The position numbers and the translations under genes are program-made. This document shows positions 18,860 through 62,490 of a stretch of DNA of 64,000 bases, in pieces. The first letter of the stretch is position 1. Each line of letters opens with the position of its first letter. Below the pieces are notes generated by a model, which saw only the letters and a list, made by a program, of their open reading frames with translations, made no database searches and had not been told where the DNA came from. This DNA is from an uncultured bacterium. GTDB lineage: Bacteria > Planctomycetota > UBA8108 > UBA1146. The stretch covers positions 3,025 through 67,024 of the forward strand of contig CALEHF010000263.1 of assembly GCA_937876125.1 (NCBI GenBank), read 5' to 3'.

Positions 18860-20155
18860 ATGTCTTCCTCAACGACCACCAATGAAGCCCTCTTCGAGCG
18901 CGCCCAGCGCACCATCCCCGGCGGGGTCAACTCACCGGTCCGGGCGTTCGGTTCCGTGGGCGGCACGCCGCGGTTCATCGCAAGTGCGAAGGGGTGCCGG
19001 GTCACCGACACCGAGGGGAAGTCCTACATCGACTACATCGGATCGTGGGGGCCGATGATCCTCGGGCACGCCCATCCCGCGATCCTGCGCGCCATCGAAA
19101 AGAGTCTTCCCTTGGGAACGAGCTTCGGCGCGCCGACCGAGGGGGAAGTGCTCCTGGCAGAGCGACTGGTCGAGCGCGTCCCCCACGCCGAGATGGCACG
19201 CCTCACGACCAGCGGAACCGAAGCGACGATGACCGCGCTCCGTGTCGCGCGTGGCATCACCGGGCGCGACGCGTTCATCAAGTTCGAAGGGAACTACCAC
19301 GGCCATGCCGACAGCTTCCTCGTCGCTGCCGGTTCGGGCGCCGCGACCCACGGCCACCCCTCGAGCCCCGGGGTTCCCGCGGCGCTCGCCGATCTCACCC
19401 GGCTGGCACCGATCAATGATCTTCCCGCCGTCGAGAAGATCTTCCAGAACGAGGGAGAGACCATCGCCTGCGTGATCGTCGAACCGATCGCCGGCAATAT
19501 TGGCTGCGTGCCCCCGGTCCCCGGCTTCCTCGAAGGATTGCGGAGGCTCTGCACAGAGCATGGCGCACTGTTGATCTTCGACGAAGTGATGACTGGATTT
19601 CGCGTGCATCCGCGCTGCGCGCAGACGCTGTACGGCGTGACGCCGGACCTGACGACACTCGGGAAGATTGTCGGCGGCGGCATGCCGGTCGGCGCGGTGG
19701 TCGGACCGAGGGAAATGATGGAGCAGCTCTCCCCCACCGGCCCGATCTATCAGGCGGGCACGTTGTCGGGGAACCCCCTGTCGGTGGCGGCGGGGCTCGC
19801 CCTGCTCGACGAATTGGCGGAACGAGAGTCGGTGATCTATCCCACTCTCGAGGCATCGTCGGCCCGGCTGGTCGATGGGATCTCCGCCGCGTTCACCGAT
19901 CATGACATCGCCCACACCATCCCGCGGGTCGGCAGCATGTTCTCGATCTACTTTCGCGAAGAGGCGGTGCTCAACTTCGAGCACGCGAAGGAGTCGGACG
20001 CCGAGCGCTTCAAGATCTTCTTCCACGGCCTGCTCGATCGCGGAGTCAACCTCGCACCGAGTCCGTACGAAGCGGCGTTCGTGAGTGAATCCCACGACAA
20101 GGCCGCGATCGACGAAACGATCGCGGCGGTGCGGGAAGTGGCGGGGCTGTTGTAG
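18860..20155 (+). CDS. hemL: Glutamate-1-semialdehyde 2,1-aminomutase
   Basis: N-terminus LFERAQRTIPGGVNSPVRAF...YIDYIGSWGPMILGHAHPAI typical of HemL (class III aminotransferase); GGAG RBS 5 nt upstream of ATG. Confidence 0.9.
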   Translation: MSSSTTTNEALFERAQRTIPGGVNSPVRAFGSVGGTPRFIASAKGCRVTDTEGKSYIDYIGSWGPMILGHAHPAILRAIEKSLPLGTSFGAPTEGEVLLAERLVERVPHAEMARLTTSGTEATMTALRVARGITGRDAFIKFEGNYHGHADSFLVAAGSGAATHGHPSSPGVPAALADLTRLAPINDLPAVEKIFQNEGETIACVIVEPIAGNIGCVPPVPGFLEGLRRLCTEHGALLIFDEVMTGFRVHPRCAQTLYGVTPDLTTLGKIVGGGMPVGAVVGPREMMEQLSPTGPIYQAGTLSGNPLSVAAGLALLDELAERESVIYPTLEASSARLVDGISAAFTDHDIAHTIPRVGSMFSIYFREEAVLNFEHAKESDAERFKIFFHGLLDRGVNLAPSPYEAAFVSESHDKAAIDETIAAVREVAGLL

Positions 20156-49850: not shown

Positions 49851-51083
49851 TCACACATCTGTGGGTCCCGGCAGAGGCGGATCCAGCTCGATTCCACCAC
49901 GACACAGGTACATGAGCGCGATCAGCGGCTGCGGGCCGTGGAAGCCGAACGCGCGTCGCGCGATCATCCGAAGACGCGTGTTCATCTCTTCGACGATCCC
50001 GTTCGTGAGTCTCTCGTCCACGTACGCCAACACTCCGTCAAGGTGCTTCCGAATCGTTCGCGCTGTCTTCACGAACGGTTTTAGTTTCGACCGTGACGCC
50101 CAAGCTAACCAATCCCTCAATGCTCGCTCTGCCCGCCATCTTTGTTTGTACTCGAGCGCCTTTGCCAGCGTCTCTTTCAACAAGTATGCACGGAAGAGCG
50201 GCGCGTTCGACTTCTCAATCTCCCGCAGCTTCTTCTTCTCTCCGTCGTTGAGGCTCCATGGGTTCTTCAGCACGACGAAACGGCTGCGGAACAGGTCCTT
50301 GCCCTCGGGCGTGCCACGCAACTCTCGAAGCTCCTCACGTCGCACCGCATCGAAGGCGTCACTGGCCAGTCGTTGCACGTGAAAGCGGTCGAAGACCACC
50401 TGGGCATTGGGAAGATGCTCGCGAATCGCTTTGTGATAACCGGCGGACATATCGATCTTCGCCGCTTCGATCTCAGCACATCGCCTCGGTCCGAGTTCCT
50501 CGAAGAAGGAGGCGAGCGTTGTCGCTCTCGCACCAGGCCCAGCCCAGACGATGCGTCGACGGTCGTGATCCACGACAACGGTCAAGTACTTGTGTCGTCG
50601 ACGGTAACTGAACTCGTCGACTCCGATTCGTTTCAGGCCGTTGAGGCGCTCTGGATCGAGTCGATAGCCGACGACCCGATCCACGATCCGGCCCACTGTC
50701 GCCCAGGAGATCCCCATCAACTTTTGAACGGAAGTCTTGTCGGTTGACTGGGCGAGGTAAGCAGTGAGCCCCTCGAAATCGTGAGTGAAGCCGCTGTTGT
50801 GTGCAGCCCAAGGAACCGACTCCACGCGAACTCCACAGGTCGGGCAGCTCACGCGACGAGGGGCGTAGACGAGCCAGACTCGCGGGCGCCCGAGGCCGAG
50901 GTGGCGCCAACGTCGAGAGGAGACCGAGTCGAAGCCCGGCGCGGGAGCCCGACAAACGCCGCAACGAGGCAACTTGGCCCTCGGTCGCACGAAGACCAAG
51001 AGGTCCCCAGAGGAGAAGTCGAATCCCTGAACAAAGAGAGTAGTGATGCCGAGAAGTCGACGAAGTAGAGTCTTGGTGCGCAC
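49851..51083 (-). CDS. ISL3-family transposase
   Basis: N-terminal zinc-finger/HTH region (RCGVCRAPAP...CPTCGVRVESVPWA) and DDE_Tnp_ISL3 core (VDEFSYRRRHKYLTVVVDHDRRRIVW..., KIDMSAGYHKAIREHLPNAQVVFDRFHV). Confidence 0.8.
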   Translation of the reverse strand: MRTKTLLRRLLGITTLFVQGFDFSSGDLLVFVRPRAKLPRCGVCRAPAPGFDSVSSRRWRHLGLGRPRVWLVYAPRRVSCPTCGVRVESVPWAAHNSGFTHDFEGLTAYLAQSTDKTSVQKLMGISWATVGRIVDRVVGYRLDPERLNGLKRIGVDEFSYRRRHKYLTVVVDHDRRRIVWAGPGARATTLASFFEELGPRRCAEIEAAKIDMSAGYHKAIREHLPNAQVVFDRFHVQRLASDAFDAVRREELRELRGTPEGKDLFRSRFVVLKNPWSLNDGEKKKLREIEKSNAPLFRAYLLKETLAKALEYKQRWRAERALRDWLAWASRSKLKPFVKTARTIRKHLDGVLAYVDERLTNGIVEEMNTRLRMIARRAFGFHGPQPLIALMYLCRGGIELDPPLPGPTDV

Positions 51084-51306
51084 GGGACCTCCGCGATCTT
51101 GTGGTTGTGGTTAACAACAAGAAAGCACGGTCTCGTGCCGTTTTCACATCTCTCTCCATCACAAATTCCTGGTGTCCCCCGGAGCTCCGTCGCCCTCGGC
51201 GTCGGTCGCGCCCTGCCCTCGCGAAGCGAGCTTGGGCCGATGCCGAGGGCGGCGGTGCGGAGGGGCCCGGCAGCTCCCGAGCTCGAGGTTGAGTGGGCGA
51301 GGTTTC

Positions 51307-51564
51307 TCACCTACGATCTACCCACTGAGGTGTGAGGAGAGGCCGGTTATTCTCGTTCGATTCGCAACTTGTATCGCGGGTTGGGTCGAAACCGCAATCG
51401 AGCGGCGCGGGGGGCTCTGATCCCATCTGGAACAAGGAGTTCAGCAGGTTGATCGGATCCGCGAGGTCGACGTTGCCATCGTCGTTGGAATCGGATCCGC
51501 TCTGACAGGTGCTCTGGGGATCATTGAAGAGAATGATCCCGAGGAGTGTCAGAGGATCACCCAC
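51307..51564 (-). pseudogene. Truncated dockerin-like module remnant (family member E)
   Basis: Only a single repeat plus terminal Cys motif (SDSNDDGNVDLADPINLLNSLF...PPAPLDCGFDPTRDTSC); upstream body absent; lies between ISL3 and repeat R2. Confidence 0.45.
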
Positions 51565-51630
51565 ATCGACCCCGCCGTCGAGATTGGTATCACCGCGGCG
51601 GAACTGAATCTGTTCGAAGGGGGGCGGCGT

Positions 51631-51697
51631 GGATCGTGCGGAAGACCTTTGTGGATGAGGGCTTGTGGGGTGTCTGTGACCGCCTGTTGGTCAAGCC
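51631..51697 (+). repeat. 65-bp direct repeat R2 (partner of 47606-47674)
   Basis: See R1. Confidence 0.75.
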
Positions 51698-51810
51698 ATC
51701 AAACGACAATCCGAAGATCATCAGGCAACGCACTCCTGTATCGTGTCGATACGAGAAATGTACGTGCCCCAAGAAGAGCGCTGGCCCGATGGATCAGAGG
51801 AGTCGAACGC

Positions 51811-52716
51811 ATGCGTGGCTGGATCATCTATCATCGTCCTGTCGACAAGAACGACGTGAGATCTCACGGGTGCCGCCGCTTCTTGGAGTCGGCGGAGAAG
51901 AACGGAGTCGAGCTTGATGTCGTCTCCCCCGAAGAGATCGATCTGGTCGTCACCCGTGAAGATCGCAAGGGGATCCTGCTCCGAGGCAAGACGACGTCAC
52001 TCCCCGATTTCGTGCTCCCGCGCACCGGCTCTGCAACGACCTACTTCACACTGGCCGTGATTCGCCACCTCGAGCGACTCGGCGTCACCTCATTCAACGG
52101 GTCCCACGCTATCGAAATCGTCAAGGACAAGCTCTACAGCCAGCAGATTCTCGCCCAGAGCAACTTCCCTGTACCGCGAACAATGCTAGGACGGCCACCG
52201 GTCAACCTCGACGTCGTTGAGGCCCAGATACGGTTCCCAGTCATCGCAAAGACGATCAGTGGATCCCAGGGAAAAGGAGTGTATCTCTGCCCCGATCGGG
52301 AAAGTCTGAACGCCACGATGGAAGAGATCAGCGCTCTCAAGCACTCACCGAACGTCATCTTCCAGGAGTTCATCGAAGCAAGCTACGGCCAGGACTTGCG
52401 GGTGTTCATCATCGGGGGACGGGCGATCGGCGCGATTCGGCGGGTAGCAAACGATGGATCGTTCAAGGCGAACATTTCACTCGGGGCGAGGGCAGAACCA
52501 TACGAGTTGACCCCCGAGGCTGAGTGGCTCGCTTCCGAAGTCGCTCGCCTCCTCGGCCTCGAGATCGCGGGAATCGACCTGCTGTTCGATACCGACGGTC
52601 TCAAGATCTGCGAAGCGAACTCCTCACCCGGGTTCAAGGGAATCGAGATGGCCTACGATATCGACGTTCCGAGTGAAATTTTCCGGTTCATCAGAGTCCG
52701 GCTGGGGCTCCTCTGA
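51811..52716 (+). CDS. rimK: RimK-family ATP-grasp alpha-L-glutamate ligase
   Basis: Strong RimK similarity (ATP-grasp motifs FPVIAKTISGSQGKGVYLC, IFQEFIEASYGQDLRVFIIGGRAIGAIRR, EANSSPGFKGIE); ATG 51811 chosen over upstream TTG/ATG. Confidence 0.75.
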   Translation: MRGWIIYHRPVDKNDVRSHGCRRFLESAEKNGVELDVVSPEEIDLVVTREDRKGILLRGKTTSLPDFVLPRTGSATTYFTLAVIRHLERLGVTSFNGSHAIEIVKDKLYSQQILAQSNFPVPRTMLGRPPVNLDVVEAQIRFPVIAKTISGSQGKGVYLCPDRESLNATMEEISALKHSPNVIFQEFIEASYGQDLRVFIIGGRAIGAIRRVANDGSFKANISLGARAEPYELTPEAEWLASEVARLLGLEIAGIDLLFDTDGLKICEANSSPGFKGIEMAYDIDVPSEIFRFIRVRLGLL

Positions 52717-52765
52717 TCCGATCGAAGGAGGGCTGGCAGTGATCCGAGGGGGCGTCACGAGCGCG

Positions 52766-53278
52766 TCATGAACCGGCCTCGTCGAGAACAGAGGCCAGTA
52801 GATCAGCCAACGCTCTCCGCTCGCTGGCCTTGAGAGCAGAGACCGATTCGGCAGCATCCTGAACCCTGGCCCCGATCGCTCGATCGACGAGCAGGCGTCC
52901 TTTCCGCGTGAGGACGACGAGCCAGCTCCGTCCATCCGCCTCGTCCGCTTCTCGCCTGACGAGGCTCCGTTCCTCGAGACGATCGATTCGATTCGTCATC
53001 GCACCAGAGGTCAAATGTGCCGAAGAACAGAGTTCTGTTGGGGTCAGTTCAAACGGTTCCCCCACTCGGCGCAGCGCTGAAAGAACGTCGAACTCCCACG
53101 GCTGCAATTCAAAAGGCTGCAGGGTCTCCTTCAAGCGCCGACCCAAATCTTGCGCCAGGATGAGAACCCTGAGAACAACCGCCATGCCAGTGAGATCGAG
53201 ATCGGGGCGCTCACCCCGCCACTGCTCCAGCATCTCATGTACGACATCACCGGCCGGCTTCTTCTTTGCGCTGTGCAT
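52766..53278 (-). CDS. MarR-family transcriptional regulator
   Basis: wHTH region LQPWEFDVLSALRRVGEPFELTPTELCSSAHLTSGAMTNRIDRLEERSLVRR. Confidence 0.75.
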   Translation of the reverse strand: MHSAKKKPAGDVVHEMLEQWRGERPDLDLTGMAVVLRVLILAQDLGRRLKETLQPFELQPWEFDVLSALRRVGEPFELTPTELCSSAHLTSGAMTNRIDRLEERSLVRREADEADGRSWLVVLTRKGRLLVDRAIGARVQDAAESVSALKASERRALADLLASVLDEAGS

Positions 53279-53288
53279 GGTCCATCTT

Positions 53289-53749
53289 TCAACGAAGGTC
53301 AGTGAGTCGATCCATCGCGTTGTGAGATTTTCTCGATCTTTGAACTCTTGCCCAAGCGGAGGTCTCGAATGCCTCCCCCCGGCGGGAGCGATCTGCGAGG
53401 GGATCTGCGGCCGCCGTCGCGCAATCGATACAATAACGCACGTAGGGGATCGCCTCCAGGCGGGCGCGGCTGATCCCATGGCCGCACATTTCGCACTCGC
53501 CGAAAATCCCGTACTCGATCTTGTCGATCGCCGCATCGATCTCCTTCAGCGCTTCGAAGTCTCGAGCGTACACCCCAAGGGCGAACTCCTCCAATGAGCT
53601 GGTCGAAGCGAGATCGTCGTTCTGATCCTCTCTGGAAAGGGATGTCTCGGTCGCCACTTGGTCATGAAGCTGGGCACGATGCACGAGAATAGCGCGAAGC
53701 TGGTTCAGTCGCCGTTCAAAGTGCCGGGTGTGTTTCGCGCTAAGTGTCA
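53289..53749 (-). CDS. DksA/TraR-family C4 zinc-finger regulator
   Basis: C-terminal CxxC-N17-CxxC zinc finger (CEMCGHGISRARLEAIPYVRYCIDC) after coiled-coil; start approximate. Confidence 0.6.
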
Positions 53750-54094
53750 TGTCTGTCGTCCCTTCCAAATACCTCGCCATTGCCCGCCGGGCAACAATCC
53801 CCCGAAGCACCCCTTCAGGTGGACATCCCGACGTCCGATACCTTCACATGAACGGATGTACCTTCGCGTCAAGGTAAAGTCACCTTCTTTTTCCGGCTCC
53901 TCGGAATTGGCTTGAGCGGCCTGAGCGGATTCGAAAGTAAAGGTTGAAATTGAGTCAACGTGGAGATACATAGCTCGACATCGAGATAGTTTCTCCCCAC
54001 GGCATTCCCCCCCGCGGTGCGCTCCAGGAGCACCTGGGACGTTTCGAGGAGCGCATCGAGTGATCGATGCCAATCAGACTGAGAAGGAGCACGG

Positions 54095-54571
54095 ATGTAC
54101 CCAGAGCACTACGGAACTCACGAGTTCTTTCCCCGCTCCAGTGACTTTGAAGTCGTCCGCCTCGACGACTTTCAGGGACTGGGGGTCCGGTCGCTCAGGC
54201 AGTTCCGCCCGGGTGACCTTGTGGCTGAGTTCACCGGCGAGCTCGTCCTCGAACGCACGCAGCACAGCCTGCAAGTCGACTCGAACCTTCACCTCGAAGA
54301 CCTCTACTTCGTGGGGTACTTCCTCCACTCGTGCGCGCCCAACGTCACCGTCGATATGACGCGAAGGCTTGTTCACGCTGCGGATTGGATCGAGCCGGAA
54401 CAGTTCCTCCGCATGGACTACGCTGAGACAGAGGACATGCTCTACAAGCAGTTTCCCTGTCGTTGCGGCGCCCCGCAGTGCCGCCGGTGGATCACTGGAC
54501 GTCGAGAAGCACCGAACATGTCTCAACCCATCCTGAGCGAAACGTCTGCGCACCAGGACCAAGTCGCGTGA
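54095..54571 (+). CDS. SET-domain protein (putative protein-lysine methyltransferase)
   Basis: SET signatures GxG (GLGVRSL), LHSCAPN (NHSCxPN), post-SET Cys cluster CRCGAPQC; stop overlaps next start (GTGA). Confidence 0.7.
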   Translation: MYPEHYGTHEFFPRSSDFEVVRLDDFQGLGVRSLRQFRPGDLVAEFTGELVLERTQHSLQVDSNLHLEDLYFVGYFLHSCAPNVTVDMTRRLVHAADWIEPEQFLRMDYAETEDMLYKQFPCRCGAPQCRRWITGRREAPNMSQPILSETSAHQDQVA

Positions 54572-55788
54572 CCGTGTTGAACGCTGCTCAATGGTGGGCG
54601 AGGGAGGACCTTCGCATCGATGGCGATCGGCTGGTCTTCGCGGGCCGTCCCGTAGCTGATCTCGTGCGACAGTTCGGGAGTCCGACCTTCTTCTACTCCG
54701 CAAAGCGCGTTCTCTCCAACGCCGAGCGCCTGCACTCGTGCTTTCGAGACGCCGGCCTAGAGGGACGCTCCCGCATCCACTACGCGATGAAGGCGAATCG
54801 ATTTGCCCCGTTGTTGACCTTCCTCAAAGGGACCGGTCTGGTCGGAATCGATGCGTGTTCCCCCAACGAGGTGGAGCACGCCATCGCCTGCGGTTTTCGT
54901 GCGGAAGAGATTTCCTTCACCAATACCAGCCTCTCACCGAGGGATTTGCGACGCCTGGCGGGAATTGATGGCCTGCGCATCAACCTGGATTCCATTGGGG
55001 CGATTCGAAGTTGGGGGACGCTCGCGCCCGGCTCTCGCATTGGAATCCGCGTCAATCCGGGGCTTGGGATCGGCCGCACTTCGAACGACAAACTCAGCTA
55101 CAGCGGCGATCAAACCACTAAGTTCGGAATCTACCGCGAGCAGTTCGATGACGCTCTCGAGATGGCGGACCGTCACAACCTCACCGTCGACACGATTCAC
55201 TTTCATTGCGGCTGCGGATATCTGACGCCGCAGCTGGAAGCACTCGACCGCATTCTCGAAGAGGCCAACTGGTTCGTGCGCCGCTGCCCGACCACCCGTT
55301 CGGTCAATCTCGGAGGCGGACTCGGGGTACCCCACCAGGCGACGGACGAACCGCTCGACTTGCACCGCTGGGCTTCGCTCCTCGTCCAGCACTTCGGTTC
55401 CACCGAATTGGCGCTGGAAATCGAGCCGGGGGACTACCTGGTCAAGGACGCGGGAATCTTGGCCCTGAGTGTTTGCGGGAACGAGGTGAAACGCAGAACG
55501 CGCTTCGTTTCCGTGGATGCCGGATTCAATGTGGCGATCGAGCCCGCGATGTACGGTCTCCCCTTCGAACCGGTCCCAGCCCTTTGGCGTCGGGGTCCGC
55601 TCGAGTTGGTGACGGTGGTCGGCAACATCAACGAGGCGCTCGATGTCTGGGCCACAGACGTGCCGCTGCCATCACTCGAGGAGGGGGACTGCCTCGCACT
55701 GATCAATGCCGGAGCGTACTCGAGCTCGATGGCCTCGAACCATTGCATGCGGGGGGATTGGAAGGAGTTCCTGCTCTTCGATGAGTAG
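54568..55788 (+). CDS. PLP-dependent Orn/DAP/Arg decarboxylase-family enzyme (LysA/NspC-like)
   Basis: TIM-barrel PLP region IHYAMKANRFAPLLTFL (Lys-PLP), C-terminal beta-domain with GEPGDYL-like EPGDYLV motif; translationally coupled to SET gene. Confidence 0.7.
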   Translation: MTVLNAAQWWAREDLRIDGDRLVFAGRPVADLVRQFGSPTFFYSAKRVLSNAERLHSCFRDAGLEGRSRIHYAMKANRFAPLLTFLKGTGLVGIDACSPNEVEHAIACGFRAEEISFTNTSLSPRDLRRLAGIDGLRINLDSIGAIRSWGTLAPGSRIGIRVNPGLGIGRTSNDKLSYSGDQTTKFGIYREQFDDALEMADRHNLTVDTIHFHCGCGYLTPQLEALDRILEEANWFVRRCPTTRSVNLGGGLGVPHQATDEPLDLHRWASLLVQHFGSTELALEIEPGDYLVKDAGILALSVCGNEVKRRTRFVSVDAGFNVAIEPAMYGLPFEPVPALWRRGPLELVTVVGNINEALDVWATDVPLPSLEEGDCLALINAGAYSSSMASNHCMRGDWKEFLLFDE

Positions 55789-55795
55789 GAGCGAC

Positions 55796-56388
55796 TCAAC
55801 GACGCTCGCCGCGCTCCTTTTCCGCGAGCGTGCTGCGCAGCAAGGGGAGCACCGCGAGGTCCTTCGGCGATCCCAGGAGTTCCTTGACTCGATTCAAGCT
55901 CGGTAGGTCCTGCGCACACAGCTCCCGTTCATCCAGGAGCATTCGGTCGCAGGTGGCGAGAAGGTCGGGGTAGCTCTGGCCGCTCGCGAGCTTCCCCAGA
56001 ACGTCGAGCGGACCACACTCCGTGCTCAGCAGGTGGTGCCTTTCCCCGGCAAGATCCTCTGCGCTGGGGCGTCGGCTGAGTTCCGGGCGGATCCGATAGA
56101 GCGCATCGATCTCGACCAGGACGCGACACAACCGCTCGATGTTCCCAGCTTCCCGAGCGTGAACCACGTCCAGGTCGACGGTCGTGATCGGCGCACCCTC
56201 AAGCAGGGCGCCACCCCTCCGACAACAACGAAGTCCACCTCGCTGTCGGCCAACGTGCGCAATAGCTTTCGGAAATCAGCGTGCACGATCCCCGCTCCTC
56301 GGGGTGAAGCCTGGACTTCTCGGGCATCAGCGACAGCGCATCCTGAAGGACCTGAAGTCGCTGCCCCGGCTCGAGGCTGAGCATCCAC
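55796..56388 (-). pseudogene. MNT-type nucleotidyltransferase (AbiEii/KNTase-like) disrupted by -1 frameshift in a G-run
   Basis: Frame 1 gives ...EVDFVVVGG then diverges. An extra G in the GGGG run at ~56214-56217 would restore GGGGALLEGAPITTVDLDVV (GGxAL...R.T.DLD NTase motif) continuing into ORF 55796..56167. Confidence 0.4.
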
Positions 56389-56887
56389 CGGATGGGGCTG
56401 CGGTCGACGCCGTTCGAATCGTAGACGACATCGGTCGAGACCGGTCCGGCGAGGGCGGGAGTTTCTTGTGGGGGCACAGTGTGTTGTGGGGGCACAGGTG
56501 GGTTCTTCATGGCTGCAGTTTTCCGCCCCCGGCTGAACCCGACCAGACGCGGGCGCTCGGGGATGCCTCGAATTGGAATCGCTGAGCCGGCGACGACCGA
56601 CCGATATTCAACCTCCAGGGGCTCCGTCGACCACTCCGAAGTCACCGATCGGTTAGGACCACAACCAGCGAACTGACGTATCCCGATCGTCTCGGACCGC
56701 TTCGATCTAGTGAACAACCCCTCCGCTGCCGCCGCTGCCAAGCATCGGGCGTTTCCAGAGTCTCCCACAGATTTTCCAAGATTCCTCTGCAGGGTCGGTC
56801 CCGCGATCTCGCGGTAGTGGCTGAAGGGGAGTTCGCGCAGTGGGTGCGAGCCCCGAAACCCCGACTGACCTTTGGAAAGGCAGTTCC

Positions 56888-59497
56888 ATGACCAGCACTC
56901 GTCGCACCGCTCTTGTTCTCATTCTTTGCGTCCTCTTCAGCCAAGCCACGATCACCTCGTTCGCCCAATGCGGTGGTTCAGTGGATTTCCCATCGGCGCC
57001 GCTCCCGCTCGATCCGGGCGTCACCGCACACACCGAAGTCGCGGGGAACGCGCTCGTCCTCGAGTCGCCCCTCCTCGTCTGTCACCCGACCGCGTCCCCG
57101 ATCGCGGGAGTGAACCAGATCAGCGTCGACGGGGCGGATCAAACGGTTGTCTTCTCGTCCCCGACCCTGGCAATTCCGGGAGACGCTCCCGCGATCGATG
57201 TGATTCGCGGCGATCAGGTCTTTACCCGGGCGCTGAGCGGGGCCTTCCTGCACGCCGCCGGCGGGCTCTGCACTTCGGCCGCCGGCTACTCGGTCGGCAT
57301 TACCGATGCGGCGATCGCCGTCGTGGTCGGAGATCGGTTCGAGGAACACCCCCTCCCCCCCGGGGAACTCCCTTTGAGTGCTGCGGCGATCGGAGTCTGC
57401 CCGCAGAACGGTTCGTTCATCTTCATCTGCGTCGAGACGACGCTCCCGAGCCTCGAGTTCGTCCTCGGTTCTGAACACGAATCGGTACCGCTCTCCTCGG
57501 CGGGCGCTGCAATTCCCGACAGCTACTCGAACGGTGCGACCGGCGGCGTGCTCTACTACTCCGCGACCGAGGTCCTCTCGATCACGGCGGGAGACGCGAG
57601 CACGACTGCGCTGCCCGGCACGTACGTTTCCCACGCACCGAGCCCTGGTGGAGTGCTCGTCACGACCACCGCGGGTCCCGTTCTGATCCCGCTCCCCACC
57701 GGCTCGATCGTGCTCCCGTTCGCTCCCTGCGACGTGCCGCTCGACTCTTCGGGGCCGGACGCGACCGGCTCGGCGATCGCTATCAACACCGACGCGTGCC
57801 CCGGCGTCGACGGTTCGACCGCGACCTGGCCCGCCCTGACGGCGGTCTGCGGTGGCGGACCCTCCTTCGGATTCTGCGCCTATCCGACGATCTCGGGTCT
57901 GCGGGCGAAGGTCGCGAGTGTGCATGCGTACGCTTCGACCACCCTCGGAGGATCGATGGCTCAGAACATCACCGGTAACATTTGGACTCCGATCGGGCTC
58001 GGCCCGGGGGCTCCGGGAACGGGGAAGACGATCGTCGCGAACGCGATGGTCGGAAATCTCAACGGCGACTTCGCGTGGGCATGGGCGTTCGCTCGTGCGG
58101 CCCTCGCTTCCGCAATTCCCGTCCCGTGCATCCGCATCACTCAGGGTGTTGCCGGCGGCCACGGACTCATCCATAACGAAGGTCACCAGGCGAGCTGGGC
58201 CGCGAGGGTGAAGGATCCGCTGCGCTTCGAGGGGTGGAACGACGCCGACGATCTCAACTTGGTGATCGAACTCTCCGAAGAGATCTTCCTCCCGATCGAC
58301 CCGACCACGCACATCTTCTCCGAGACCGAATACAAGTTCGACATGGGGAGCACATTGCCCGGTCTCCCGGAGCTCTGGCAAGGAACGATCACGGCGGATC
58401 ACAATGGCGTCGATCCCCAGCTGACCGTCGAGTTCTCGAGCAATCCAGCCCTCGGTCTCGACGACAACACAATCGCCCTACTGATCGAAGCCGCGTTCTT
58501 CTACGATGTGGTCCGCGCCGGTTATGCGCTCTCGAGTGCGCTCACGATCCTCACGACGGCGATCGACGTCCCGGCGGGCGTGACCGCGGTCGACATCAAG
58601 TGCGACAGCTCGATCGCGGGCAACCACTTCGAGTCGAGCTACAACGGTCCTCCGATCACCTCGATCTGCGGCGACGGCATCGTCGAAGAAACGGAAGAGT
58701 GCGATCAGACGGGCCAACTCAGCTGCAACCCGAACTGCCAGCTGACCCCCGACAACACGATCTTGATCCTCGACGTCCCCGCGCAGCCCGGTTTCCACCA
58801 GCTGCCGGTGTTCCTCAGCAACCCGGTGCCGAGCTCTCAGTTCTCCCTCGCCATTTGCGCCCCGGGGAACGACTTCGTCGGCCTCTCCTTCCAGGGCACG
58901 ATTACAGAGCTCGTGAACCCCGAACTCGTCCTTCAACAGTTCTTCCCCGGGCAAGGGATGACCCTGCAAGTGGTCTGCGACGCGCTGCCGCCCTACAACG
59001 CTCAAATGCTGCCGCCCGGTCCGTTCGAGCCGATCGTGATCCTCGACGTCTTCGTCAACAATCCGTTCAGCTTCCAGTTCTGCGACGACGCGCTCGGACA
59101 GCAAGGTCAGCCGACCGTGCAGAACTCAGTCATGAACTTCGGTGACCAACTCGTGCTCCAAGATGGCTTCGGATTGATCACCGACGTGCACGTGGTCGGC
59201 GGACCCCAGGTGCAATTCGTGCGGGGCGACGCGAACGCCGACGGCCAGCTCGATATCAGCGATCCGATCTCGACCCTGCTCTTCCTCTTCCCGCCGACCC
59301 CGTTCGGAGCGTTCTTGCCGTGCATGAATGCGGCAGACGTGAACGTCGATGGTCTGATCGATATCGGAGATCCGATCGGCCTCCTCGGACACCTTTTCGA
59401 TCCGCTGGCGCCGCCGATGCCACAACCGTTCCCGCTCTGCGCGCCCGATCCGTTCTTGTCCGGTCTCGAGTGCCAAGTCCAGGCGCTCTGCCCGTAG
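56888..59497 (+). CDS. Large secreted protein with Myxococcus-type Cys-rich repeat and C-terminal double dockerin-like module (family member F)
   Basis: Signal peptide MTSTRRTALVLILCVLFSQATITSFAQ. CGDGIVEETEECDQTGQLSCNPNCQ repeat. C-term FVRGDANADGQLDISDPISTLLFLF...PCMNAADVNVDGLIDIGDPIGLLGHLF...PPMPQPFPLCAPDPFLSGLEC. Confidence 0.65.
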   Translation: MTSTRRTALVLILCVLFSQATITSFAQCGGSVDFPSAPLPLDPGVTAHTEVAGNALVLESPLLVCHPTASPIAGVNQISVDGADQTVVFSSPTLAIPGDAPAIDVIRGDQVFTRALSGAFLHAAGGLCTSAAGYSVGITDAAIAVVVGDRFEEHPLPPGELPLSAAAIGVCPQNGSFIFICVETTLPSLEFVLGSEHESVPLSSAGAAIPDSYSNGATGGVLYYSATEVLSITAGDASTTALPGTYVSHAPSPGGVLVTTTAGPVLIPLPTGSIVLPFAPCDVPLDSSGPDATGSAIAINTDACPGVDGSTATWPALTAVCGGGPSFGFCAYPTISGLRAKVASVHAYASTTLGGSMAQNITGNIWTPIGLGPGAPGTGKTIVANAMVGNLNGDFAWAWAFARAALASAIPVPCIRITQGVAGGHGLIHNEGHQASWAARVKDPLRFEGWNDADDLNLVIELSEEIFLPIDPTTHIFSETEYKFDMGSTLPGLPELWQGTITADHNGVDPQLTVEFSSNPALGLDDNTIALLIEAAFFYDVVRAGYALSSALTILTTAIDVPAGVTAVDIKCDSSIAGNHFESSYNGPPITSICGDGIVEETEECDQTGQLSCNPNCQLTPDNTILILDVPAQPGFHQLPVFLSNPVPSSQFSLAICAPGNDFVGLSFQGTITELVNPELVLQQFFPGQGMTLQVVCDALPPYNAQMLPPGPFEPIVILDVFVNNPFSFQFCDDALGQQGQPTVQNSVMNFGDQLVLQDGFGLITDVHVVGGPQVQFVRGDANADGQLDISDPISTLLFLFPPTPFGAFLPCMNAADVNVDGLIDIGDPIGLLGHLFDPLAPPMPQPFPLCAPDPFLSGLECQVQALCP

Positions 59498-59584: not shown

Positions 59585-59778
59585 GAGTCAAGATGCTCCG
59601 TTTGCTAGCGACCGTCCTCCAAAGACCTGAAGAGGCGCGCGCCCCGGGAGAAAATCCGGCTGACCTTCAACGACTTGGATTTGCGGAGTCTTTGTGACCG
59701 TCTTCCCGTGACCTTCTTCCCCCAGATTCCCGGCCCGAACTCTTGAACTTGTCCAGAATCAGATCTACTCTGCGACCC

Positions 59779-60228
59779 ATGGACAAAGACCCCGCAAACC
59801 TCCTCAGAGAACACGGTCTCCAAGTGACGGCCCAGCGCCTGGCCGTGCTGCGGGCGGTCTCGGGCCGACCCCACTGCACAGCCGATGAGGTCGCCGAGGA
59901 CGTGCGCGCCGAGATCGGCGCCATCTCTCGCCAAGCGGTGTACGACGCGCTCCGGGTGCTCGCGGAAAAGCAGCTCATCGGGCGCGTCCAGCCCGCCGGG
60001 TCCCCCGCCCTCTTCGACCCCAGGGTCGGGGACAACCACCATCACGTCATCTGCCGCACCTGTGGGAAGGTCGTCGATGTCGACTGCGCCGTCGGCGAAA
60101 CCCCCTGCTTGACCGCCGCCGATCACTCCGGCTACCAGATCGATGAGGCGCAGGTGATCTATTGGGGCCATTGCCCCGAGTGTCTCTCGGAAAAGTCAGA
60201 GTCGGAGCCTTCGAGAACAGGAGCCTGA
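59779..60228 (+). CDS. Fur-family transcriptional regulator (FurA/PerR-like, upstream of katG)
   Basis: Fur fold: HTH ([19 protein letters not shown]), metal sites [12 protein letters not shown]...CPEC; furA-katG arrangement. Confidence 0.8.

Positions 60229-62490
<2,262 letters not shown>

Follow-up and report, generated by a model that had tools for sequence, protein, structure and literature searches.

A coupled BurB/BurI-type gene pair predicted to begin a methionine-methylation route to DMSP in Planctomycetota and other bacteria

Described routes from methionine to DMSP

DMSP, from which the climate-active gas DMS derives, is one of the main organosulfur compounds of the sea. The known marker genes for DMSP are missing from many DMSP producers (PMC11306096). 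Among the systems described so far, the one closest to the locus analysed here is the bur (malleicyprol) cluster of Burkholderia thailandensis (PMC7496086; PMC12542666), where a polyketide virulence factor is built by way of DMSP. BurB, a minimal single-domain SET protein of 172 aa, converts methionine to S-methylmethionine (SMM) in vitro and has no activity on MTHB or MMPA (PMC12542666; PMC7496086). BurI and SMMDC are DAPDC-like enzymes that catalyse the decarboxylation of SMM (PMC11464771), and a burI deletion mutant of B. thailandensis accumulates SMM (PMC7496086). In reviews as late as 2026, burB is said to occur only in Burkholderia, and PMC9135737 agrees.

The same methylation pathway is represented by MmtN, SMMDC, DMSPAAT and DMSPADH in Streptomyces mobaraensis and mmtN bacteria (Liao & Seebeck 2019 and Williams et al. 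2019, as related in PMC12542666 and PMC9135737); the mmtN-type clusters, in so far as these accounts portray them, include downstream pathway genes, unlike the locus considered here. S. mobaraensis is listed among the mmtN-containing bacteria (PMC9135737). SMMDC is reported to be 48% identical to BurI and DAPDC-like (PMC11464771; PMC7496086), and no significant similarity is reported between MmtN and BurB (PMC12542666). The MMT/SDC/DOX route of Spartina anglica likewise goes from Met through SMM to DMSP-amine, and its SMM decarboxylase is also a neofunctionalised fold-type III enzyme, but one derived from ODC and not from a DAPDC-like ancestor (PMC11464771). Its MMT is a large bifunctional class-I enzyme, and a copper amine oxidase oxidises the DMSP-amine (PMC11464771).

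Two further gene clusters serve as references. An Aquabacterium bur-like cluster has the order PKS/NRPS-SET-TauD-aminotransferase-ALDH...decarboxylase, and its SET protein is 70% identical to BurB. Desulfatibacillum aliphaticivorans has an operon metK-SET-DC-Aminotran_3-Aldedh, with the same five genes in Desulfobacterales HSG17; no description of this metK-SET-decarboxylase-aminotransferase-aldehyde dehydrogenase operon was found in the literature searched.

The gene pair and its surroundings

The window, i.e. the whole stretch of 64,000 nucleotides that was analysed, contains a SET gene followed on the same strand by a decarboxylase gene. These and the adjacent features are as follows.

51811-52716, plus strand: RimK-family ATP-grasp ligase (TIGR00768, 240.6 bits versus a cut-off of 143.4); local context
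52766-53284, minus strand: MarR-family gene (Pfam, NCBIfam); local context
53289-53810, minus strand: DksA/TraR-family gene (Pfam, NCBIfam); local context
53811-54094, no strand: divergent intergenic region from the DksA/TraR-like gene to the SET gene, presumably with the promoter of the gene pair
54084-54089, plus strand: Shine-Dalgarno sequence AAGGAG, 5 nt ahead of the SET ATG, read directly from the sequence
54095-54571, plus strand: SET open reading frame, ATG start, 158 aa, BurB-type SET-domain methyltransferase, predicted L-methionine S-methyltransferase
54568-54571, plus strand: GTGA, where the SET stop TGA (54569-54571) overlaps the decarboxylase GTG (54568-54570)
54568-55788, plus strand: decarboxylase open reading frame, GTG start, 406 aa, BurI-type fold-type III PLP enzyme, predicted SMM decarboxylase (SMM to DMSP-amine and CO2)

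The overlap at GTGA, which the original prediction had pointed out, is seen as described. An identical SET protein occurs on four metagenome contigs, three of which hold the whole 406-aa decarboxylase gene while the fourth ends inside it, and independent gene calls give the same decarboxylase start with its 4-nt overlap. Such an overlap of start and stop would keep both enzymes co-expressed, so that SMM would be consumed as it is made. This arrangement differs from that of the bur clusters, where burB and burI lie apart. It resembles the D. aliphaticivorans operon, where SET likewise precedes the decarboxylase with a 4-nt overlap; there the two proteins are 45% (SET) and 52% (decarboxylase, E 3e-151) identical to those of the window.

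Homologous SET proteins make up 59 clusters, and relatives are encoded in 315 GTDB species genomes, of which the 80 closest species-level loci were compared. The decarboxylase gene lies directly 3' of the SET gene in 78 of these 80, across several phyla; at one locus (L030) the SET gene has no decarboxylase. Of the 76 loci that could be scored, 43 allow a 4-nt start/stop overlap and 7 others one of 1 nt (50/76 overlapping), and 71 have the two genes within 27 nt of each other. Two proteins (P0112 and P0197) are SET-decarboxylase fusions, and a third (P0114) joins an ODC-like decarboxylase to a BurB-like SET domain in the reverse order. All-against-all clustering of 2,556 open reading frames from 83 loci leaves SET and decarboxylase as the only universal families; the next clusters are alternative-frame open reading frames inside the decarboxylase gene, or lineage-specific genes (sigma-54 activator, agmatinase, CASDH, SpeA and GNAT). 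The viral collection yields two distant lone SET genes only, neither with a decarboxylase. The idea of a functional pair, already contained in the original prediction, survives because the pair is conserved elsewhere, and these comparisons support the view that the two genes form a coupled functional unit.

The 80 closest loci belong to Desulfobulbales, including Candidatus Electrothrix, to Pseudohongiellaceae and other Gammaproteobacteria, and to Planctomycetota, together with one Spirochaetia MAG and one Bdellovibrionaceae MAG. Carriers in culture include Desulfobulbus rhabdoformis DSM 8777 (L077), Desulfoprunum benzoelyticum DSM 28570 (L046) and Sphingomonas paeninsulae YZ-8, and the cassette is also present in complete genomes of Pseudohongiella (OZ245763.1) and Candidatus Electrothrix laxa (OW818652.1). 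The nearest MAG (L012, Planctomycetota) encodes a SET protein 64% and a decarboxylase 75% identical to those of the window. The window sequence sits in a sister clade distinct from bur, made up of marine and sediment Planctomycetota, Desulfobulbales and Gammaproteobacteria and not of Burkholderiales.

The genes around the pair are placed as the original prediction had them, with MarR and DksA/TraR upstream on the opposite strand; the compact neighbourhood for amino-acid or polyamine modification that it had drawn from them did not hold. When the window's neighbour genes were compared by tblastn with 91 loci, the only loci with MarR and DksA/TraR beside the pair were contigs of this organism itself (L008-L011), and 80 other species lacked them there; these two may possibly be lineage-specific regulators. 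RimK recurs only in the lineage of L004 and L059, at 31% identity and in variable positions, and the closest relative, L012, has wholly different genes around the pair. RimK, MarR and DksA were therefore rejected as parts of the system, not being conserved partners.

A consensus scan of the intergenic region (53811-54094) found neither a sigma-70 consensus site nor a terminator. A riboswitch/RNA search gave no Rfam match at E<=0.1 in 51000-57000, and in nine diverse loci the upstream regions gave nothing relevant at the Rfam gathering score. The GC minimum of the window (0.569) falls in 53001-54000.

The SET-domain protein and the decarboxylase

The features within the two genes on which the comparison with characterised enzymes relies are listed below.

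54323-54343, plus strand: LHSCAPN motif (aa 77-83), the SET 'NHSC' signature; H78, C80 and P82 invariant across the family
54458-54481, plus strand: post-SET Cys cluster C122-R-C124-GAPQ-C129, presumed Zn site together with C80
54790-54792, plus strand: codon of K75, the PLP-binding lysine (AMKAN motif), equivalent to E. coli LysA K54; kept in at least 97% of 74 family members
55423-55434, plus strand: EPGD (E286-D289), with D289 in place of the Arg of LysA EPGR (E. coli R271, T. maritima R249)
55540-55542, plus strand: codon of E325, in place of the second DAP-carboxylate-binding Arg (E. coli R307, T. maritima R285)
55624-55635, plus strand: NINE (N353-E356), with N355 in place of LysA C342 and E356 equivalent to the acidic residue E315 of T. 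maritima

The NHSC-like motif and the post-SET Cys cluster that had marked the first gene as a SET gene are both present, as LHSCAPN and C122/C124/C129. C80, C122, C124 and C129 are invariant in the family alignments (n=26 and n=40 sequences) and align with C95, C137, C139 and C144 of BurB. A phmmer search of the PDB with the window protein puts BurB (9l4t/9l4v) first with E 1.6e-34 and 122.5 bits; the runners-up are histone KMTs at ~1e-06, the best of them EHMT1 at 1.1e-06. The alignment with BurB is gapless, with 41% identity over BurB residues 23-163, and the 158-aa clade as a whole is 41-45% identical to BurB. Seven SAM-contact and active-site residues are named in BurB, R42, A44, H72, H93, Y124, R133 and H138 (PMC12542666). 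Among these, H72, H93 and Y124 are kept as H57, H78 and Y109, and R133 is replaced by K118 in a column that holds K or R across the family. Two SAM contacts are not kept (R42 to Q27 and H138 to R123), both in columns that vary within the family. An AF2 model of the SET protein (pLDDT 90.9, pTM 0.83) superimposes in Foldseek on the BurB-SMM-SAM complex 9l4v with TM 0.86 and rmsd 1.6 A over 146 columns, and on histone KMTs with TM 0.53-0.64. The window protein is thus most likely a BurB-type small-molecule methyltransferase, predicted from sequence and model to convert Met and SAM to SMM and SAH.

The original prediction had considered methylation of a lysine-derived product or of a protein; among characterised proteins, however, a methionine S-methyltransferase is nearest in both sequence and fold. 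That the first gene encodes a protein-lysine (or lysine-metabolite) SET methyltransferase, acting with a LysA-, ODC- or NspC-type decarboxylase and with RimK in lysine or polyamine metabolism, is very improbable. It would agree with the SET signature motifs and with the PGAP labels of the same pair in Sphingomonas paeninsulae, 'SET domain-containing protein-lysine N-methyltransferase' and 'diaminopimelate decarboxylase'. Against it, the Pfam SET match (PF00856) is weak, at 20.9 bits under a gathering score of 22.4, BurB is far nearer than any KMT in both searches, and RimK is not a conserved neighbour. The second gene bears on this possibility as well. The LysA model TIGR01048 is the top NCBIfam model for the decarboxylase, but its 233.1 bits lie under the equivalog cut-off of 297.9, as do those of the BurI-like reference decarboxylases (205.8 and 217.7 bits), and the NspC model scores 36.5 versus a cut-off of 409.

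Assignment of the second gene to the PLP-dependent Orn/DAP decarboxylases stands, both domains being present in the 406-aa protein (PF02784, 2.4e-29; PF00278, 2.3e-14) with a fold-type III architecture; its placement as LysA, NspC or ODC does not, since it groups with BurI-type enzymes, lacks the DAP-binding Arg residues and falls under the LysA cut-off. It is 32% identical to E. coli LysA, with which it shares the fold and the PLP-binding residues. The PLP site is intact, K75, H213, G249-G251, E286 and Y384 corresponding to K54, H191, G225-G227, E268 and Y378 of E. coli LysA, and these residues are kept in at least 97% of the family (n=74). No second decarboxylase or lysA paralogue was found within the 64-kb window.

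The differences from LysA lie in the distal pocket. In T. maritima DAPDC, R249 and R285 bind the distal carboxylate of DAP, and E315 reads the distal positive group (PMC8277567). In the family of the window enzyme, the column of D289 holds D in 57 of 74 members, E in 17 and R in none, and that of E325 holds E in all 74, so that both DAP-carboxylate arginines are acidic throughout, which speaks against a lysine-pathway enzyme. N355, which takes the place of C342, and E356 are invariant (74/74). With both arginines replaced by D/E289 and E325 and with E356 kept, the pocket would be acidic and suited to a cationic sulfonium.

The closest relatives point the same way. The window decarboxylase is 54% identical over its full length (E 1e-142) to the enzyme at the BurI position of the Aquabacterium bur-like cluster, through which, rather than through authentic B. 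thailandensis BurI, the orthology was drawn; this cluster was taken as reference because the B. ubonensis bur locus (L092) ends before burI. In simple neighbour-joining trees, computed without support values, the window enzyme clusters with BurI-like sequences and is separated from LysA by a long branch. Orthology, operon context and the charge-reversed distal pocket make it most likely that the decarboxylase is a DAPDC-like enzyme of the BurI/SMMDC type, with predicted conversion of SMM to DMSP-amine.

The same folds could also serve other substrates or another order of steps: Met would be decarboxylated to 3-methylthiopropylamine, to be S-methylated by the SET enzyme afterwards, or the substrate would be another thioether, a selenoether or a basic amino acid. 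This appears improbable, though less so than the lysine-methyltransferase reading. Methionine in BurB is held mostly through main-chain atoms (PMC12542666), so that substrate specificity is unreadable from side chains, and the clade is just 41-45% identical to that enzyme. In addition, 3-methylthiopropylamine is outside the substrates tried on BurB (PMC12542666), and BurB-like SET domains are partnered by three decarboxylase types, namely the BurI type, the ODC-like fusion and an AdoMetDC-like gene that neighbours such a SET gene in a Rhizobium plasmid. On the other side, the order is established in B. thailandensis, where BurB takes Met directly and loss of burI leaves SMM behind (PMC7496086). 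Decarboxylase active-site residues are identical between the cassette-only clade and the clades with full DMSP operons, and a sulfonium suits an acidic distal pocket better than an uncharged thioether would.

Later steps, end product and wider meaning

The homology, the fold and the active-site substitutions, together with the conserved pairing, the fusion proteins and the complete-pathway operons of sister clades, suggest that the two genes quite probably form a translationally coupled operon whose products catalyse the first two steps from methionine, by methylation, towards DMSP. By homology to the crystallised and assayed BurB, the 158-aa SET protein would transfer the methyl group of SAM to the sulfur of free L-methionine, giving SMM. 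The 406-aa decarboxylase would then remove the alpha-carboxyl group of SMM to give DMSP-amine (3-dimethylsulfoniopropylamine). This is the chemistry, Met to SMM to DMSP-amine, of the bur cluster. In the weakest step of the proposal, unlinked enzymes would transaminate or oxidise DMSP-amine and dehydrogenate the product to DMSP; alternatively, DMSP-amine itself would be the product.

The later genes of the known clusters are missing nearby. Queries from the two reference clusters found no BurD-type aminotransferase or BurE-type aldehyde dehydrogenase at any of the 80 GTDB loci, up to 8 kb on either side. None was found in the 64-kb window either, where the sole hit, and the only class-III aminotransferase, is HemL (18860-20155; 599.4 bits versus a cut-off of 527.3). 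Unlike the bur cluster, the window locus also has no PKS/NRPS and no TauD, and where the D. aliphaticivorans and HSG17 operons hold all four pathway enzymes plus SAM synthetase, it holds the first two only. DMSP as the end product is therefore putative. However, B. thailandensis with burD or burE deleted still gives a DMSP-derived product, which the authors credit to housekeeping enzymes (PMC7496086), so that the absence of linked genes does not mean the absence of the steps.

It is possible, although doubtful, that after the same two-step chemistry the pathway of hundreds of cassette-only species goes no further than DMSP-amine or a simple derivative of it, for example N-acetyl-DMSP-amine. 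DMSP-amine, as a sulfonium dication, would then act as a compatible solute or polyamine analogue. The lack of a linked aminotransferase or aldehyde dehydrogenase in all 80 loci fits such an ending; as sister clades hold all four or five genes in one operon, either the genes need not be linked here or the later steps are missing. Two kinds of neighbours fit as well. Five related loci of Pseudomonadales/Pseudohongiellaceae type (L061, L068, L071, L072 and L081) have a GNAT acetyltransferase gene 3' of the decarboxylase and in the same orientation, and in ~8-10 loci of Desulfobulbales the pair borders on genes of polyamine metabolism (SpeA, agmatinase and a saccharopine-dehydrogenase-like carboxyspermidine dehydrogenase). 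Yet each of these is limited to one lineage and may be synteny kept by descent, no specific family could be assigned to the GNAT (best match AAC(3)-I, 28.6-40.6 bits versus a cut-off of 200), and the outcome in the burD and burE mutants also counts against such an ending.

Many bacteria of sediments and seawater carry the coupled two-gene module, over a taxonomic breadth (Planctomycetota, Desulfobulbales including cable bacteria, and Pseudohongiellaceae) that appears unreported; the literature searched gave no report of the SET-decarboxylase pair outside Burkholderia or of DMSP synthesis in these taxa. RefSeq names the same pair 'protein-lysine N-methyltransferase' and 'diaminopimelate decarboxylase, lysine biosynthesis', a systematic error that can be corrected. 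If the genes are active, synthesis of DMSP or DMSP-amine would reach abundant lineages of sediments and deep water, anaerobes included, and the BurB/BurI-type pair would be a new gene marker for 'omics surveys. Should the pathway indeed stop at DMSP-amine or a simple derivative, bacteria would have in this compound a sulfonium metabolite not recognised before, serving as an osmolyte or in place of polyamines, and anoxic sediments would have a hidden source of DMS precursors; the lineages concerned include cable bacteria, further Desulfobulbales, Planctomycetota and Pseudohongiellaceae. With either end product, genes of the burB/burI type would be overlooked markers of organosulfur production, since reviews confine burB to Burkholderia.

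Layout of the SET–decarboxylase locus

The SET gene, the decarboxylase gene and the RimK, MarR and DksA/TraR genes lie where the original prediction put them, the pair being borne out by both the ORF table and the raw sequence.

Features of the locus and its flanks
49851-51083, minus strand: intact ISL3-family transposase, just upstream of RimK
51811-52716: RimK
52766-53284, minus strand: MarR
53289-53810, minus strand: DksA/TraR
54084-54089: AAGGAG ahead of the SET ATG (raw sequence)
54095-54571, plus strand: SET gene, 158-aa ORF (ATG at 54095, TGA at 54569-54571)
54568-55788, plus strand: decarboxylase gene, 406-aa ORF (GTG at 54568-54570)
55796-56167, minus strand: 123-aa ORF
56840-59497, plus strand: 885-aa ORF
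59743-60228: Fur-family regulator
60274-62490: 738-aa ORF

The claimed GTGA overlap is present, the decarboxylase GTG sharing nucleotides with the SET stop codon. The SET protein carries the expected motifs, LHSCAPN (aa 77-83) and the cysteine cluster C122-x-C124-x4-C129, and scores 20.9 bits against the Pfam SET model, below the threshold of 22.4. Its partner matches both domains of the Orn/DAP/Arg decarboxylases.

On L008, a near-identical metagenome contig of the same organism, the ISL3 transposase is called as two fragments, and an Arm-DNA-binding (integrase N-terminal) fragment lies farther upstream (~46.8-47.2 kb) on the same near-identical contigs. GC content between 47 and 54 kb is 0.57-0.62 per 1-kb window, slightly below most of the window. 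The 123-aa ORF, convergent with the decarboxylase gene and ending 8 nt from its stop, has no family match and is a gene call on some matching contigs. The 885-aa ORF matches neither Pfam nor NCBIfam; its C-terminal part contains repeated D-x-D-G/dockerin-like motifs (DANADGQLDISDP, DVNVDGLIDIGDP), as in planctomycete surface proteins. The 738-aa ORF corresponds to a 730-aa catalase-peroxidase (PF00141) in gene calls on matching contigs and, with the Fur-family gene, would make up an apparent oxidative-stress unit some 4 kb away from the pair.

Relationship to BurB and BurI

A PDB sequence search with the SET protein returns a single outstanding match, BurB of Burkholderia thailandensis (9l4t/9l4v, E 1.6e-34), followed by histone methyltransferases near 1e-06. 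BurB is a 172-aa SET enzyme that converts free L-methionine to S-methylmethionine (SMM), as first shown in PMC7496086; it shows no activity towards MTHB or MMPA, and structures of it bound to Met and to SMM plus SAM have been published (PMC12542666). The SET protein aligns without gaps to BurB residues 23-163. BurB H72, H93 and Y124 correspond to H57, H78 and Y109, and four cysteines are invariant; R133 is replaced by K118, and R42 and H138 are not kept. Comparison of the AlphaFold2 model (pLDDT 90.9) with the BurB-SMM-SAM complex gives TM 0.86 and rmsd 1.6 Å; for lysine methyltransferases, TM is only 0.53-0.64. In a neighbour-joining (NJ) tree without support values, the protein falls inside a 'pair-only' clade, sister to a clade formed by BurB (bur clusters) and a five-gene-operon group.

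For the decarboxylase, the best NCBIfam model is LysA (233.1 bits, under the cut-off of 297.9), with NspC, SpeA and DokD far below, and the PDB matches, all of modest score (130 bits for E. coli LysA), are DAP decarboxylases only. BurI and SMMDC, which are bacterial SMM decarboxylases, are themselves described as DAPDC-like (PMC11464771), and SMM builds up in a burI deletion mutant (PMC7496086). BurI-like references, found through the BurB-sequence search and the genomic context of relatives, stand in for authentic BurI: the window decarboxylase is identical over its full length at 54% to that of an Aquabacterium bur-like cluster (E 1e-142) and at 52% to that of a Desulfatibacillum aliphaticivorans operon (E 3e-151), versus 32% for E. 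coli LysA. In a 75-sequence alignment, the family and the BurI-like sequences form one cluster on a long branch from LysA (NJ, no support values).

The PLP site is intact (K75, H213, GGG, E286, Y384). In Thermotoga maritima, R249 and R285 salt-bridge the distal carboxylate of DAP (PMC8277567); at these positions (E. coli R271 and R307) the family has D or E in 74/74 sequences and E in 74/74, respectively. E356, the glutamate that senses the positive group at the distal end, is retained, and N replaces LysA C342. Such a charge reversal in the distal pocket speaks against DAP as substrate and suits a cationic dimethylsulfonium side chain. The predicted pair is real and coupled, but the chemistry proposed for it is very probably wrong. 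In RefSeq/PGAP, an overlapping pair on Sphingomonas paeninsulae plasmid NZ_CP032828.1 (locus L100, 5899-7637), its decarboxylase 53% identical to the window's, goes under the names 'SET domain-containing protein-lysine N-methyltransferase' and 'diaminopimelate decarboxylase' and carries a GO term for lysine biosynthesis. These names are probably a systematic misannotation.

Conservation of the pair and its surroundings

The SET family comprises 59 clusters at 90% identity, mostly of 150-165 aa, and 175 representatives at 50% identity with a score <=1e-10. With each GTDB species represented by a single genome, 315 genomes carry a relative. The 80 best, counted from record titles, divide into 34 Gammaproteobacteria (Pseudohongiella, Pseudomonadales, OM182 and others), 29 Desulfobulbales and related 'delta' lineages (including Candidatus Electrothrix, Desulfobulbus rhabdoformis and Desulfoprunum benzoelyticum), 8 Planctomycetota (Pirellulaceae, Mariniblastus), 6 unclassified Proteobacteria, and one each of Spirochaetia, Bdellovibrionaceae and an unclassified bacterium. 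The pair is conserved well beyond the window: a decarboxylase lies directly downstream in 78 of these 80 loci (52-75% identity, tblastn). One exception is a contig that stops right after the SET gene. The other, L030 (7983-11568, a Pirellula sp. MAG), is the only one of the 80 with a SET gene and no decarboxylase; phosphonate-biosynthesis genes follow instead, namely a PEP mutase-nucleotidyltransferase fusion and a phosphonopyruvate decarboxylase. Among 76 scorable loci, an available decarboxylase start allows the two genes to overlap by 4 nt at the SET stop in 43 and by 1 nt in 7 more. In 21, the closest start in frame is placed anywhere from 16 nt ahead of the stop codon's end to 27 nt beyond it, and in 5 the gap is 93-119 nt.

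Fusions of SET and BurI-type decarboxylase also occur (P0112, 575 aa; P0197, 545 aa), possibly as artefacts in which an indel has joined two overlapping genes. This cannot apply to P0114 (560 aa), in which an ODC-like decarboxylase (EPGR and CDSND motifs) precedes a C-terminal BurB-like SET domain; here a second decarboxylase lineage has been recruited independently. Other BurB-like SET genes have different neighbours. On the phage-plasmid-like p7 of Rhizobium bangladeshense (NZ_CP071625.1; RuvC, ribonucleotide reductase, ParB), one (L101, 5995-6864; 42% identical) is flanked by an asparagine-synthase-related gene and a small 'S-adenosylmethionine decarboxylase' gene, a third decarboxylase type; SMM, like SAM, is a sulfonium amino acid. 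Lone BurB-like proteins with the family motifs (34-37% identical) are encoded among replication genes on the viral IMG/VR contigs L097 (4944-5429) and L098 (5001-5402), with no decarboxylase nearby.

Beyond the pair, little is shared. Clustering of 2,556 ORFs from 83 non-redundant loci leaves SET and decarboxylase as the only universal families. The compact neighbourhood originally proposed is not conserved: MarR and DksA adjoin the pair in the window's organism only, and RimK recurs, with an AstE/AspA-like gene, only in one gammaproteobacterial lineage (31% identity). In the nearest relative, a Planctomycetota MAG (L012), the pair has a DUF1080-type gene and a PPIase gene for neighbours.

Proposed pathway and end product

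The window pair is quite probably a BurB/BurI-type module for the route from Met through SMM to 3-dimethylsulfoniopropylamine (DMSP-amine). Homology, the chemistry of the pocket and the logic of the operon suggest, as the likeliest mechanism, that the SET enzyme would use SAM to turn Met into SMM and that its coupled decarboxylase would carry SMM on to DMSP-amine.

Longer sets of genes surround related genes elsewhere. The Aquabacterium cluster, whose SET is 70% identical to BurB, is ordered PKS/NRPS, SET, TauD, class-III aminotransferase, aldehyde dehydrogenase and decarboxylase, and those of B. ubonensis and Eleftheria terrae start in the same way. In D. aliphaticivorans (L093, 6710-12487) and again in Desulfobacterales HSG17 (L096, 1-5133), an operon comprises metK, BurB-like SET, BurI-like decarboxylase, class-III aminotransferase (Aminotran_3) and aminobutyraldehyde-dehydrogenase-like Aldedh genes. 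By its gene content, this set matches the DMSP methylation pathway plus SAM supply, a candidate complete pathway in sulfate-reducing bacteria; no description of it was found in the literature searched. No BurD-like aminotransferase or BurE-like dehydrogenase occurs within 8 kb in the 80 GTDB loci or in the 64-kb window, whose class-III aminotransferase is HemL. B. thailandensis lacking burD or burE still makes the DMSP-derived product, which the authors credit to housekeeping enzymes (PMC7496086); by analogy, two genes may suffice for DMSP.

DMSP-amine or a derivative may equally be the end product. In five related Pseudomonadales/Pseudohongiellaceae-type loci (L061, L068, L071, L072, L081), a same-strand GNAT acetyltransferase gene, without specific family assignment, follows the decarboxylase by ~50-100 nt and could acetylate DMSP-amine; all but L061 have an unusually long SET-decarboxylase spacer (27-119 nt). 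In ~8-10 Desulfobulbales loci, polyamine genes adjoin the pair (agmatinase, saccharopine-dehydrogenase-like carboxyspermidine dehydrogenase, SpeA), and a convergent sigma-54 activator follows it in 19 (neighbour genes at L064 10832-11722, L038 11867-13057, L057 11066-13039 and L070 4564-6081). The GNAT and polyamine patterns are each restricted to particular lineages, and the Desulfobulbales neighbours may be inherited synteny only.

The enzymology of BurB/BurI, MmtN/SMMDC and plant MMT/SDC is already known; to these families the window pair adds a further member, which belongs to a separate clade and has a minimal architecture. In the literature searched, BurB is restricted to Burkholderia or to a narrow set of taxa (PMC13360808; PMC9135737). 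No description of the pair in Planctomycetota, Desulfobulbales or Pseudohongiellaceae was found in the literature searched, the coverage of which was incomplete, so that an earlier description elsewhere is possible. The interest of the finding lies mainly in how widely the module occurs, which appears to be unreported, and in what its end product may be.
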